Shown: positions 2,743 through 5,448, counted from the first letter of the stretch. The stretch is 5,448 nt of DNA from Hassallia sp. (GCA_050997715.1 JBPCQW010000270.1:1-5448), one strand, 5' to 3'. Notes: a model not told the origin generated them from the letters alone. Made by a program: numbers and translations.

Positions 2743-3174
2743 ATGGAACCTGTAACACTCACAGCAGTAGCAACAGCGATCGCCACCATAATTTTAACCA
2801 AAGCCCTAGAAAAAACAGGCGAAAAGCTGGGAGAAACTGCATTAAAGGAAAGTCATAACTTAATCGAACAGCTACGCCATAAGAATAAGTTACCATTTCT
2901 CGCCAATGCCACACAAGAAAACCAAGAGCCATTAGATTATGGCAAAGCAGTCCTAGAGTTAAAAGCAGTCGCAGACGCAGATAGCGAAATTGCCAAATCA
3001 GTGCGATCGGTAGAAGCAGCAGCAAACGCCGATCCACAAGTTGCGCCAAAAGTCAAAGCATTAACAAATGATCTCAACTCGCAACCAGCAGGCGTCATCA
3101 ATTCTACAAAGTTAGCTGAATCGATTAAAAACTTATTTCAAGGAAATATTACTATCATTGGTGGTAACTTTTGA
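2743..3174 (+). CDS. 143-aa alpha-helical protein with a hydrophobic N-terminal helix. It is a candidate N-terminal effector or adaptor module of the downstream STAND NTPase
   Basis: I prefer ATG 2743 over the track's GTG 2635, because that GTG lies inside the terminator hairpin. The sequence starts MEPVTLTAVATAIATIILTKALEKTGEKLGE, with hydrophobic helix V4-L22 at nt 2752-2808. There is an internal duplicated 11-mer: ADADSEIAKSV and ANADPQVAPKV. The C-terminus is FQGNITIIGGNF (3136-3171). The ORF shares a frame with the NB-ARC ORF, separated by one TGA. From memory, this type of N-terminal sequence is usually found fused to cyanobacterial NB-ARC/TPR proteins. No Shine-Dalgarno is visible. Confidence 0.6.
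   Translation: MEPVTLTAVATAIATIILTKALEKTGEKLGETALKESHNLIEQLRHKNKLPFLANATQENQEPLDYGKAVLELKAVADADSEIAKSVRSVEAAANADPQVAPKVKALTNDLNSQPAGVINSTKLAESIKNLFQGNITIIGGNF
2776..2783. repeat. HIP1 octamer GCGATCGC
   Basis: Exact match read in the sequence. A 7/8 copy, GCGATCGG, is at 3003-3010. Confidence 0.9.
3172..3174 (+). other. Single in-frame TGA separating two same-frame ORFs (2743-3171 and the frame running on to 5448)
   Basis: Read directly: ...aac ttt TGA cca cag tcg tcg gaa cgg gaa ccg aca aag tta aat ccc ctc acc aaa ata cca gat aat ttg ccc tgg... The translation is ..GGNF*PQSSEREPTKLNPLTKIPDNLPWSGATKFVGREKEL. There are no other stops in this frame between 2743 and 5445. Confidence 0.95.
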
Positions 3175-3234
3175 CCACAGTCGTCGGAACGGGAACCGAC
3201 AAAGTTAAATCCCCTCACCAAAATACCAGATAAT

Positions 3235-5448
3235 TTGCCCTGGAGTGGCGCGACAAAGTTCGTCGGACGTGAAAAAGAACTCGAACTTCTCCACCAACTA
3301 TTGCAGGGAAATAACTGTGTGGCAATAGCTGCCGTTGCTGGTATGGGTGGTGTGGGTAAAACTGAACTAGCGTTGCAATATGCACTTCTTCAGCGGGAAT
3401 TTTACTCTGGGGGGATTTGCTGGTGTGATGTCAAAAGCGGTGATGTGGGTTTGCAGGTGGTGCAATTTGCTCGCATTTACCTAGATTTAAACCCCTTGAC
3501 AGATTTAGATTTAATTGGGCAGGTGAAATACTGTTGGCAGCGCTGGCGTGAGGGTAATGTGTTGTTAGTGCTGGATGATGTCACTATATATAAGGAAATT
3601 CAGCCGTATTTACCGCCTTCATCCACCCGGTTTAAGGTGCTGATGACAACCAGAAAGCACTTCGGGCAGATTCCTAAATTATCATTGGATGTACTGGAAC
3701 CACAAGCCGCGCTGGAGTTGTTGCGAAATCTAATTGGGGATGAACGGGTTAATGTAGAAACACAGGTTATCGCGTCTTTACTTGAAAGGTTGGGATATTT
3801 GCCTTTGGGGATAGAGTTAGTTGGACGGTATCTCGCAAGAAAAGAGGATTTGTCCATAGCAGAAATGTTGCAGAGGTTGGAGAAAAAGAAACTTAACGAG
3901 CGTTCTTTGTCTCAACCAGAAGACGACATGACAGCACAGCGGGGTGTGCAAGCAGCATTCGAGTTAAGTTGGGATGAATTAAACGACACAGATAAGCAAC
4001 TCGCGTGTTTGCTGAGTTTATTTGCTGCTGCACCGATACCTTGGGAGTTGGTAGAATCTTGTTTACCTGATGTGGATGCAGAAGAGTTAGAAGAAAGTCG
4101 GGATGATAAACTGCTGAATTTGCATTTGCTCCAGCGTAAGCAAAAGGGAATTTATCAACTGCATCCACTGCTGCGAGAATTCTTTCAAGGGAAGTTAGAA
4201 GCACCACCTTTTGAGGAAAATTCCGGGGATGTCAAACAAGCTTTTGTCAAAGTAATGATAGCAGTTGCCAAGCAGATTCCTGATTATTCTACCCTTGAGC
4301 AAATCACCGCCGTTTCTCCCGCCATACCTCATATAGCTGAAGTAGCGAATAATCTGATTCAATATGTCAGCGATGATGATTTAATTTCACCATTTATCGG
4401 GAACGCTCAATTTTATAAAGGTCAGGGATTGTATAACCAAGCTAAACCTTGGTATGAACAGTGTTTAGAAGTTACCAAAAAACACTTGGGAGAGCAACAT
4501 CAAGATGTTGCCCTTAGCCTCAACAACCTAGCCTCACTTTACGATTCTCAAGGAAAATACACCGAAGCCGAACCGTTATACCTACAAGCTTTGGCACTAA
4601 GGCGACAACTACTGGGAGAGGAACATCTTCTTGTTGCAGAGAGCCTCAATAATCTGGCTTTACTCTACAACTACCAAGGCAGATACAGCGAAGCCGAACC
4701 CCTTTACCAACAAGCTTTGGCACTCTATCGCCAACTGCTGGGCGAATCACATCCAGATGTCGCCACTAGCCTCAACAACCTAGCGTTCCTCTACAAATCC
4801 CAAGGCAGATACAGCGAAGCCGAACCCCTGTTGCTGCAAGCTTTAGAACTAAGACAACGCCTACTGGAAGAGGAACACCCTCTTGTTGCACTTAGCCTTA
4901 ACAACCTGGGACAATTCTACTACTCACAAGGAAAATACAACGAAGCCGAACCCCTATTGCTGCAAGCTTTGGAACTAACGCAACGCTCGCTGGGAGAAAA
5001 ACATCCATCTTTTGCTACTAGCCTCAACAATCTAGCTGCACTTTACTACTCCCAAAGAAAATACAGCGAAGCCGAACCACTGATGCTGCAAACTTTGGAA
5101 CTAATGCGACACCTGCTTGGAGAGGAACATCCAGATGTTGCACTTAGTCTCAACAACCTGGCATATCTCTACAACTTCCAAGGAAGATACAGCGAAGCCG
5201 AACCCCTGCACCTGCAAGCATTGGAACTCAGGCGACACCTACTGGGAGAAGAACATCCAGCTTTTGCGGTTAGCCTCAAAAATCTAGCAGAACTCTATCA
5301 CTTACAAGAACGTTATACGGAAGCCGAACCATTGTATCTGCAAGCATTGAAGATTTTTGAGCAACAATTAGGTGTTAATTATCACTACACTGTCAAGTGT
5401 CATAAAAATTTGGTAAGTCTTCGCGCTGACATGGCTTCACAGGAGTAA
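3235..5448 (+). CDS. NB-ARC (AP-ATPase) STAND NTPase with C-terminal TPR array (bacterial NLR-like protein). The start codon is uncertain
   Basis: Motifs seen: 'FVGREKELELL' pre-P-loop motif, Walker A 'GMGGVGKT' (nt 3340-3363), Walker B 'VLLVLDDV' (DD = 3574-3579), RNBS-B-like 'VLMTTRK', GLPL-like 'LGYLPLGIELVG'. Eight 42-aa TPR units of the kinesin-light-chain type (SLNNLA.LY..QG+Y.EAEPL..QAL) follow, from about nt 4408. Stop TAA at 5446-5448. The only start upstream of the P-loop region that keeps the FVGRE motif is TTG 3235, which has no Shine-Dalgarno. The first in-frame ATG (3343) lies inside the P-loop. Confidence 0.9.
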   Translation: MPWSGATKFVGREKELELLHQLLQGNNCVAIAAVAGMGGVGKTELALQYALLQREFYSGGICWCDVKSGDVGLQVVQFARIYLDLNPLTDLDLIGQVKYCWQRWREGNVLLVLDDVTIYKEIQPYLPPSSTRFKVLMTTRKHFGQIPKLSLDVLEPQAALELLRNLIGDERVNVETQVIASLLERLGYLPLGIELVGRYLARKEDLSIAEMLQRLEKKKLNERSLSQPEDDMTAQRGVQAAFELSWDELNDTDKQLACLLSLFAAAPIPWELVESCLPDVDAEELEESRDDKLLNLHLLQRKQKGIYQLHPLLREFFQGKLEAPPFEENSGDVKQAFVKVMIAVAKQIPDYSTLEQITAVSPAIPHIAEVANNLIQYVSDDDLISPFIGNAQFYKGQGLYNQAKPWYEQCLEVTKKHLGEQHQDVALSLNNLASLYDSQGKYTEAEPLYLQALALRRQLLGEEHLLVAESLNNLALLYNYQGRYSEAEPLYQQALALYRQLLGESHPDVATSLNNLAFLYKSQGRYSEAEPLLLQALELRQRLLEEEHPLVALSLNNLGQFYYSQGKYNEAEPLLLQALELTQRSLGEKHPSFATSLNNLAALYYSQRKYSEAEPLMLQTLELMRHLLGEEHPDVALSLNNLAYLYNFQGRYSEAEPLHLQALELRRHLLGEEHPAFAVSLKNLAELYHLQERYTEAEPLYLQALKIFEQQLGVNYHYTVKCHKNLVSLRADMASQE
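4408..5445 (+). repeat. Coding tandem repeat: eight TPR units with an exact 126-bp period
   Basis: The 11-mer GAAGCCGAACC starts at 4564, 4690, 4816, 4942, 5068, 5194 and 5320, spaced exactly 126 bp apart. A degenerate copy 'caagctaaacc' sits at 4438. The first and last units are divergent capping units. Confidence 0.9.

Follow-up and report, generated by a model that had tools for sequence, protein, structure and literature searches.

A conserved UGA-C junction between effector and NLR-like sensor genes of Nostocales as a candidate site of programmed stop codon read-through

We analysed a stretch of DNA of 5,448 nucleotides from Hassallia sp. (GCA_050997715.1 JBPCQW010000270.1:1-5448; hereafter, the window), in which the open reading frame (ORF) of a small effector is separated from the gene of a nucleotide-binding oligomerization domain-like receptor (NLR) by a single in-frame TGA (positions 3172-3174). 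Programmed UGA read-through is the most economical explanation for this junction and the one best supported by the comparative evidence, and we give it a probability of about 0.65; positions 2743-5448 would then form one translational unit, yielding abundant free effector and a small amount of an effector-NLR fusion. We favour this explanation because no start codon is conserved past the TGA, the downstream sequence carries a coding signature, indels are in frame, the stop occurs in the leaky UGA-C context, an adjacent hairpin covaries and the sole sense variant of the stop codon is TGG. An initial annotation of the window had offered three options, namely a recent nonsense mutation or sequencing error in a fused gene, programmed read-through, and a genuinely split two-component system; the second is the one that fares best in our comparisons.

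Conservation of the TGA, its reading frame and the following C

All features described here for positions 2743-5448 are on the plus strand. The effector ORF (2743..3171; MEPVTLTAVATAIATIIL) starts at ATG 2743, has 143 codons and ends at TGA 3172-3174, which, together with the C at position +4 (base 3175), makes up a conserved weak termination signal and the proposed read-through site (3172..3175). The TGA and the first possible start, TTG 3235, are separated by a linker of 60 nt, or 20 codons, without stops (3175..3234; translation PQSSEREPTKLNPLTKIPDN), and the frame after the TGA remains open for 757 codons, up to the stop at 5446-5448. TTG 3235 shares the frame of ATG 2743 (both are 1 mod 3), and the initial annotation was accurate in describing two ORFs that are split only by a TGA followed by C. 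It was also accurate in ranking UGA-C among the poorest terminators, since this is documented as the weakest context for release factor 2 (RF2; PMC5289835). The downstream ORF, with a Walker A motif in an NB-ARC domain followed by TPR repeats, corresponds to an NLR-like NTPase of the STAND (signal transduction ATPases with numerous domains) class; here, as in the homologous loci, the NB-ARC/TPR NLR is directly downstream of the effector, on the same strand and collinear with it.

We fetched 80 genomic loci of relatives, all of them from Nostocales (Nostoc, Scytonema, Nodularia, Calothrix, Brasilonema, Tolypothrix, Aetokthonos and others), and found 77 further sites, on 76 metagenome contigs, by the nucleotide motif alone; both sets together comprise 135 distinct junctions. 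Of the 80 loci, 76 have TGA as the stop of the small ORF, with C as the +4 base in 74 of those 76, and in about 70 of them the frame stays free of stops over hundreds of codons more and leads into a STAND NTPase. Its P-loop is GMGGxGKT, ca. 51-64 codons past the TGA, in loci of the NB-ARC type, and GEPGAGK[ST], ca. 109-123 codons past the TGA, in those of the NACHT-like type. Among the 135 distinct junctions, 121 have a P-loop at no more than 140 codons from the TGA, and this P-loop is in frame in every case (121/121) and without an intervening stop in 120 of them, over 21 different spacer lengths. In a set of 65 unique junctions the TGA is conserved at 100% and the +4 C at 98%, as opposed to 3.4% of 268 long ORFs from the flanks of the same loci that end in TGA-C. 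As judged from these sequences, the arrangement of a TGA-C with an in-frame NTPase is far beyond chance. Six of the loci (L010, L035, L040, L045, L046 and L069) contain truncated or decayed NLRs; truncated copies are expected for fast-evolving immune genes.

Fused versions of the gene, with a sense codon at the position of the stop, are almost absent. In the loci retrieved by protein similarity, the codon at the 5' end of the RNA element described below is TGA in 68 cases and TGG in one, and never a Cys codon. The TGG (Trp) is found in the DNA itself, at L081 639-701 (...VTFN W LESP...); this locus is on a GC-rich metagenome contig of 2 kb and has a frameshift further downstream, before the P-loop, and the copy is either decaying or carrying an assembly error. 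A search for homologues fused across the junction retrieved nothing but NLR fragments that have N-terminal motifs of their own. As to the question, raised in the initial annotation, of whether homologues span the junction as single polypeptides and which sense codon aligns with the TGA, almost none is fused, and the aligned codon is TGG. The seemingly fused protein P0016 (L161 169-765, 198 aa, with W at the stop position) is an artefact of the alternative genetic code that the gene caller applied to a TGA in the DNA, and it exemplifies how database entries can mislead on this type of locus. The protein P0257 (259 aa), a long hit of the profile search described below, belongs with this same question of sense variants at the stop position.

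A covarying RNA element starts at the stop codon

The TGA is the beginning of an element of ca. 45 nt (3172..3213 in the window), with the consensus TGA CTR NAN YCG YCY G..loop..CRGRY AAAGTYAA ATCCC, in which T1, G2, A3, C11, G12 and C14 are invariant over 65 unique sequences. When we built a covariance model from 58 loci, leaving out the window, it identified positions 3166-3228 with 64.8 bits (E=4e-18); its 16 other matches in the window all had E values of 0.59 to 9.2, with none else below 0.5, and it gave no hit in L056, L064 and L066, three related loci that do not have this arrangement. The element, searched as a regular-expression motif, is confined to these junctions in the 1.08 Mb of fetched DNA, and no Rfam family matched in the window.

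The core of the element is a hairpin, S1 (3183..3200), with a 5' arm GUCGG (3183-3187), a loop AACGGGAA (3188-3195) and a 3' arm CCGAC (3196-3200). It begins 8 nt past the UGA, which is where known recoding stimulators act. In an alignment of 73 unique junctions, 97.8% of the S1 cells are paired, and three of the five pairs show double-sided changes (CG/UA 58:14, CG/UA 34:26 and GC/CG 66:4). There are 21 combinations of S1 arms among 137 unique junctions, including GCCCG/CGGGT, GTCCG/CGGAC, GCCTG/CAGGT, GTCCC/GGGAC and the GTCGG/CCGAC of the window. Indels within the element, which leave loops of 5, 8 or 11 nt, are always multiples of three. For the whole structure, we counted 64 cells with double-sided changes versus 20.4±5.2 in shuffled alignments, with none of 500 shuffles reaching as high, and 95.7% of the cells are paired versus at most 52% in slid registers. 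Thermodynamic stability was dropped as evidence for an RNA structure (z of ca. -0.1 to -0.7), and the case for it rests on covariation.

Two other pairings extend from this hairpin. An outer helix (3172..3207) includes the stop codon itself and pairs UGAC(C), at 3172-3176, with AGUUA, at 3203-3207, the fifth pair being a C-A mismatch in the window; in its family form, UGACU with AGUYA, 97.3% of the cells are paired over the 73 junctions. The 3' arm varies only between U and C, opposite the G of the UGA, and double-sided covariation is impossible in this helix because its 5' arm is fixed. Additionally, a possible pseudoknot, S2 (3191..3213), would pair GGGA in the loop (3191-3194) with UCCC (3210-3213); 89.5% of its cells are paired, two of the pairs show GC/AU exchanges, and the longest loop-to-tail helix has a mean length of 4.33 nt versus 3.36±0.06 for shuffled loops and 4.14±0.05 for swapped partners.

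The sequence past the TGA lacks a conserved start and evolves as coding sequence

Start codons past the TGA are not conserved. Loci differ in where the first ATG, GTG or TTG appears, between codons 18 and 76, and no motif resembling a Shine-Dalgarno (SD) sequence precedes the earliest of these candidates. TTG 3235 of the window, likewise without an SD-like motif, is the Leu of the conserved NLP motif, for which other loci use CTN or TTA, and lies within the block NLP..SG..FVGRE (3229..3273), which is the N-terminal edge of the NTPase module and is alignable in all loci of the NB-ARC type. The Walker A sequence GMGGVGKT is at 3340-3363, with the P-loop at codon 56 after the TGA, and the first in-frame ATG (3343, codon 57) is the M of this same motif. 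The suspicion in the initial annotation that TTG 3235 and ATG 3343 are poor starts, with the block before the P-loop running without interruption across the TTG, is consequently well founded. L047 has no canonical start between the TGA and the P-loop, and L042 has none ahead of the FVGRE motif. In NLRs that do have an ATG of their own, the same IPQNLPxSGxxxFVGRE block is preceded by at least 40 aa, with a BASS motif or an EAD or other adaptor domain. Homologues consistently organized as two genes, with an NTPase starting from its own ribosome-binding site, had been named at the outset as the outcome that would tell against read-through; among the loci bearing the element we found no conserved start.

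The uncertainty about these starts can be seen in public annotations. Genomes of the Nostoc/Anabaena PCC 7120 type (L082/L083) carry a copy of the cassette at 5451-5541, downstream of the small protein BAB75480.1, with a junction that reads ...HNTYN-X-LQSPEQER and a linker peptide LNPEIPQNLPLSGVVK. Two annotations place the start of this NLR differently, at 5529 versus 5541, and in the related genome L084 the NLR was not called at all.

We estimated the proportions of nonsynonymous and synonymous differences (pN and pS) by the Nei-Gojobori method on 40 unique ungapped junctions of the NB-ARC type. Codons 1-14 after the TGA, which correspond to the RNA element, have a pS of 0.21 and a pN/pS of 0.95 in frame 0, versus 0.78 and 0.70 in the other two frames, and contain no stops in frame 0 versus 60 and 17. 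In codons 15-25 pS is 0.32 and pN/pS is 0.31, versus 0.64 and 0.87 (stops, 0 versus 36 and 32), and in codons 26-55 pS is 0.46 and pN/pS is 0.27, versus 1.09 and 2.60 (stops, 0 versus 63 and 104). Variation in codons 15-25 is in excess at third positions in frame 0 only, resembling in this codons 26-55 and the effector domain; these codons are upstream of most candidate starts and, by this comparison, evolve as coding sequence. Because pS is low (0.21) and pN/pS is ca. 0.95 in codons 1-14, the alignment indicates that constraint at the RNA level dominates there. The prediction that a conserved TGA would be accompanied by purifying selection on the linker was, therefore, borne out for the TGA and for codons 15-25, but not for codons 1-14. 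Both ORFs flanking the TGA are under purifying selection.

The small protein is a BELL-family effector and the NLR has no copy of its tail

BELL domains are alpha-helical domains of ca. 100 aa with a hydrophobic N-terminal helix, and BASS motifs are amyloid-signalling motifs of ca. 25 aa; for BASS5, the published motifs are KLADKIGQVVMPGGTGNIQNQ on the Bell side and MPEDSGKFADKIGVFAAPGAQVNIGTQI on the NLR side (Table S2 in Dyrka et al. 2020, bioRxiv 10.1101/2020.01.06.895854). With the 143-aa protein of the window, a word-index search found 166 homologues of ca. 90-200 aa, most of 139-152 aa and none of them (0/166) fused to an NTPase, and a profile search on 1.84 billion representative proteins returned 389 hits, almost all of them stand-alone proteins of 130-160 aa. 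With nearly all of the ca. 390 family representatives in this size range, the comparison identifies the 143-aa protein as a real stand-alone product. Among the long profile hits, P0261 (823 aa) has a BELL-like N-domain that passes directly, without an intervening stop, into a dynamin-like GTPase, and P0190 (700 aa) has one joined in the same way to a remnant of a NACHT C-terminal/HEAT-repeat region.

The 143-aa protein has no match in Pfam, NCBIfam or PADLOC, and neither a PDB sequence profile search nor a Foldseek search with its AlphaFold2 model retrieved an informative match. Its N-terminus is hydrophobic and helical, and the model is all-helical, with seven helices, a predicted local distance difference test (pLDDT) score of 67 and the last 10 residues disordered. 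The C-terminal tail KLAESIKNLFQGNITIIGGNF (3109..3171) is a BASS5-like putative amyloid-signalling motif, N/Q/G-rich and beta-prone; it can be aligned with the KLA[ED]KIGxVVxxGG... tails of relatives (KLAEKIGQVV..GG..N.QN) and with the Bell-side motifs of BASS5. We assign the 143-aa protein to the BELL family because many members of its family, as defined by a profile hidden Markov model, carry the Bell-side BASS5 motif (Dyrka et al. 2020, Table S2); the placement is made through the tails of relatives and the helical model, there being no Pfam model for BELL. The effector domain has a pN/pS of 0.25 and the tail evolves faster, with 0.55.

The three loci without the element (L056, L064 and L066) are, by their sequence, canonical BASS5 BELL/NLR pairs. 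Their small ORF ends with ...KLAEKIGQVVIGGTGSIQNQSF, followed by TGA-T, and the NLR starts ca. 20 nt further on, from its own ATG and in another frame, with MPEDxGKFAEKIGVVAHNSTVNIHNQNIG, which is a copy of the effector tail. No such copy occurs in the loci bearing the element: in 127 of them, the first 60 aa past the TGA do not resemble the tail (mean z=-0.03), versus z=4.3-8.8 for the same comparison in the canonical pairs. What the window-type loci have in common with the BELL/BASS-NLR pairs is an effector that is small and helical, hydrophobic at its N-terminus and ending in a tail of ca. 20-25 aa that is N/Q/G-rich and beta-prone; it is situated immediately upstream of a collinear NB-ARC/TPR or NACHT NLR, in multicellular cyanobacteria. 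The window-type loci differ in that the NLR lacks an N-terminal copy of the motif, a conserved start and a separate frame; a conserved UGA-C, together with an RNA element, links it in frame to the effector. With respect to the split two-component system proposed in the initial annotation, then, the stand-alone nature of the small protein holds, but the NLR has neither an ATG nor an amyloid motif copy of its own. The published BELL/BASS screen required a motif on the NLR side (Dyrka et al. 2020), and amyloid-signalling screens with this requirement would have missed the whole class.

A BELL homologue is also found in Microcoleus sp. (L162 3001-3600), ending with ...QGNTFHGGNF followed by LNPP..., with no junction element (no hit of the covariance model) and no NLR downstream. 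It may be a remnant, or it may represent a lineage with an orphaned effector, and because this Microcoleus locus lacks the element, the junction may be largely restricted to Nostocales.

The junction joins diverse effectors to diverse NTPases

The scan of metagenomes with the nucleotide motif alone retrieved, in 77 out of 77 cases, sites at the end of an ORF with an in-frame continuation, mostly into NB-ARC or NACHT-like NTPases. The upstream ORF codes for a BELL-family protein in 60 of the 77, with varied N/Q-rich tails that include canonical BASS5 tails. Other upstream effectors are α/β-hydrolases (DUF676/PGAP1-like), in L094, L096, L111, L116, L126, L132 and L140, and a TIR_2 effector, which precedes the same TGA-C and hairpin junction in L114. 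Because the junction also follows α/β-hydrolase and TIR effectors, the cassette is, on this sequence survey, a general effector-NLR joint that is not tied to BELL or BASS. Both types have been described as alternative effectors for amyloid signalling and for all-in-one NLRs (Dyrka et al. 2020). Tandem paralogous BELL-UGA-NLR units occur in L086, at 4004 and 9648, with one of the NLRs truncated (25 codons), and, ca. 5 kb apart, in L003 and L041 (Scytonema hofmanni UTEX 2349).

Alternative explanations

Several observations weigh against read-through. The support for it is strong but comparative throughout, and locus counts overstate the number of independent events, the loci being homologous. 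Most loci of the NB-ARC type carry a GTG or TTG at codons 20-27, where weak internal initiation or re-initiation may take place. Codons 1-14 are free of constraint at the protein level, and the open frame could be, in part, plain nucleotide conservation. The hairpin, of 5 bp and with a loop of 8 nt, is a small one of unremarkable thermodynamic stability (z = -0.07 for the window, with a family mean of -0.74), known read-through stimulators being usually more stable, and support for the pseudoknot S2 is moderate only. Finally, an amyloid-like tail is lacking in some of the α/β-hydrolase effectors that share the junction.

Some of these points would fit a true operon of two cistrons, in which the NLR would be produced by weak internal initiation, or by termination and re-initiation, at the non-conserved GTG or TTG found 20-27 codons past the stop, with the RNA element acting as an intercistronic regulator of coupling, RNase processing or mRNA stability. 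Gene callers do annotate two genes, the canonical BELL/NLR pairs are genuinely two genes, cyanobacterial genes often have no SD motif, and the hairpin is weak for a recoding stimulator. We nevertheless consider this unlikely, in view of candidate starts that vary in position and identity and are inside or past the NLP..SG..FVGRE block, which is elsewhere preceded by at least 40 aa, and that are missing ahead of Walker A in L047 and ahead of FVGRE in L042. The coding signature of codons 15-25, upstream of the candidate starts, and the maintenance of the frame with the TGA in 121/121 junctions despite 21 length classes also argue against two cistrons, which would, moreover, leave unexplained the requirement for TGA-C as the stop.

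The modularity of the junction suggests another possibility, which is that it works mainly at the DNA or single-stranded DNA level, as a recombination module that shuffles effectors (BELL, α/β-hydrolase, TIR) and NTPases (NB-ARC, NACHT-like). The same ca. 45-nt element is found between at least three unrelated types of effectors and several types of NTPases, homology begins exactly at the TGA and ends ca. 15 codons later, and there are tandem paralogues (L086; L003 and L041). Recombination has no need, however, for a stop codon, for TGA-C, for a strict frame or for in-frame indels, and no recombinase was consistently linked to the junction in the contexts examined. We regard this as a quite improbable main function, and one that is compatible with read-through rather than a replacement for it. 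As a specific candidate, we rejected a core site like that of integron attC (GTTRRRY in AAAGTTAAAT), for lack of an inverse core and because variants with GTC are common.

It is more improbable still that the UGA is recoded by a dedicated mechanism, be it a suppressor tRNA or selenocysteine (Sec) insertion directed by a Sec insertion sequence (SECIS) hairpin, or bypassed by ribosome hopping. The layout is certainly reminiscent of bacterial SECIS elements, with a strict requirement for UGA and a hairpin within ca. 10 nt, and the stop codon lies inside a helix, as it does at the take-off site of T4 gene 60. The stop position has, however, only TGG as a sense variant and never a Cys codon, there are no Cys homologues, and the position belongs to an unconstrained linker that follows unrelated tails. 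The window contains no match to SECIS or any other Rfam family, the Sec machinery itself not having been searched for in the genomes. The Sec trait is not reported in cyanobacteria, and those analysed in PMC1273633 are listed as non-Sec-decoding. Hopping, for its part, would not require that indels in the bypassed segment be in frame, and the codon ahead of the stop is not conserved.

The first option of the initial annotation, a recent nonsense mutation that turned a fused NLR gene into a pseudogene or an error of sequencing or assembly, is refuted by the comparisons and has a practically negligible probability: a lone stop in a continuous frame is what it would look like in a single sequence, and a few loci do have decayed NLRs, but the same TGA-C and open frame recur at more than 130 distinct sites, in independent assemblies of many genera of Nostocales and in metagenomes, with purifying selection on both flanking ORFs and almost no sense-codon fusions.

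Two translational candidates of other kinds were also discarded. The UUU UGA C of the window resembles the +1 frameshift site of prfB, CUU UGA C, but the downstream ORF is in frame 0 and not in +1, and the last sense codon varies (TTT, TTC, AAC, ATT, ACT and others). A start overlapping the stop (TTG in TTTTGA) would open a frame that runs into a stop 16 codons later, and AAC TGA is the ending in many loci.

A model for read-through at the junction

Under programmed read-through, most ribosomes would stop at UGA 3172-3174 and release the free 143-aa protein, a BELL-type membrane-targeting cell-death effector with a BASS5-like amyloid-prone tail. A minority would decode the UGA, probably as Trp by means of near-cognate tRNA-Trp, and cross the 20-codon linker into the NB-ARC/TPR sensor, giving a low-abundance effector-tail-NLR fusion of ca. 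900 aa. Read-through would be favoured by UGA-C, the weakest known RF2 context, by the conserved CUR NAN YCG and by the small hairpin or pseudoknot; the structure is ca. 6-9 nt from the stop and of modest stability, and the hairpin, starting 8 nt past the stop, would sit at the mRNA entry channel with the UGA in the A site. NLR oligomerization, triggered by the TPR sensor, would gather the N-terminal tails of the fusion, and the clustered tails would nucleate the conversion or polymerization of the excess of free effector, which would damage the membrane and kill the cell. In this way, one copy of the motif would do what the canonical BELL/BASS-NLR pairs do with two. We infer this seeding model by analogy with the canonical pairs, and it would not be the whole story because some hydrolase effectors lack an amyloid-like tail.

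More tentatively, and as a possibility that we deem rather doubtful, the junction could be a dedicated and perhaps regulated recoding switch, that is, a 45-nt cassette of UGA-C and hairpin/pseudoknot placed between interchangeable effectors (BELL, α/β-hydrolase or TIR) and NLR sensors, which sets or tunes the ratio of free to fused effector, with the rare fusion nucleating a seeded amyloid-like or cooperative assembly. Tuning could respond, for instance, to RF2 activity, to the status of tRNA-Trp or to the interference of phages with translation. Such a switch would be the first case of widespread programmed read-through in cellular bacterial genes, and a one-gene version of HET-S/NWD2-type signalling, the fungal HET-S/NWD2 system being the paradigm of amyloid signalling pairs.

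Read-through signals are best known from viruses, such as those of the coat/A1 gene of phage Qβ (UGA), of gag-pol in murine leukaemia virus (UAG, with a pseudoknot 8 nt downstream) and of alphaviruses and coltiviruses (UGA-C with a 3' stem-loop). The junction shares with them a conserved leaky stop with an in-frame extension, the C at +4 and an RNA structure ca. 8 nt past the stop, and it would also result in two products in a fixed ratio from one ORF. Unlike the viral signals, it is found in a chromosomal bacterial gene family and is known here from sequence, its structure is much smaller and less stable, and its products would be an immune effector and a sensor instead of structural and replicase proteins. 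To our knowledge, read-through with a dedicated RNA signal, well known in viruses, is almost without precedent in chromosomal bacterial genes. The conceptual read-through product of the window, with effector, NB-ARC or NACHT and TPR, has the composition of the all-in-one NLR/STAND proteins, which contain the same effector types (Kaur et al. 2020 eLife, PMC7159879; Dyrka et al. 2020), but here a stop is conserved at the boundary between the effector and the nucleotide-binding oligomerization domain, and the main product would be the free effector.

Both components of the proposed mechanism, programmed read-through and BELL/BASS-NLR signalling, are of known kinds, and their combination in a variant with a leaky-stop joint appears to be new. 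The BELL/BASS preprint (Dyrka et al. 2020), the eLife survey (PMC7159879) and the PNAS paper on hypermutated sensors make no mention of stop codons, read-through or recoding, and full-text literature searches on read-through in the contexts of NLRs, amyloids, cyanobacteria and NACHT found nothing relevant. If our explanation is correct, read-through would be a conserved feature of hundreds of NLR-like genes for immunity or cell death in cyanobacteria, an unusual route by which a bacterial immune gene would make two proteins from one reading frame. It would explain how sensors come by an effector or amyloid motif at their N-terminus with no second copy of the gene, and the ratio of sensor to effector would be fixed in the manner of the Gag:Gag-Pol ratio in retroviruses. 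Public genomes probably carry wrong start annotations for these NLR genes. The copy in Nostoc/Anabaena PCC 7120 makes the model easy to test in that strain.

Domains of the NLR and neighbouring genes

The NB-ARC NTPase domain of the window (3274..3915) matches Pfam PF00931 (E=1.6e-14, residues 34-247 of the post-TGA translation). The TPR sensor region (4405..5430) consists of eight TPR_12/TPR_10 units (Pfam TPR_12, E=2.6e-119; TPR_10, E=1.1e-98) and also matches the NCBIfam model FxSxx_TPR (E=5.8e-81), under the cut-off of that model.

Upstream of the effector gene there is an ORF for the C-terminal half of an XPB/ERCC3-like helicase (9-1163; PADLOC PbeA, E=6e-41), another for a DUF790 (Bax1-like) protein (1253-2467; E=9e-159) and, close behind the latter, an ORF of 50 aa without a family match (2472-2624). 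The ORFs at 9-2624 look like a separate nuclease-helicase module, possibly related to defence, and at other loci the BELL gene does not have this module as its neighbour. Between the 50-aa ORF and the BELL gene there is a terminator-like hairpin (2637-2652; GCGGACTTCAGTCCGC) followed by a T-rich run, which points to separate transcription of the BELL-NLR unit.

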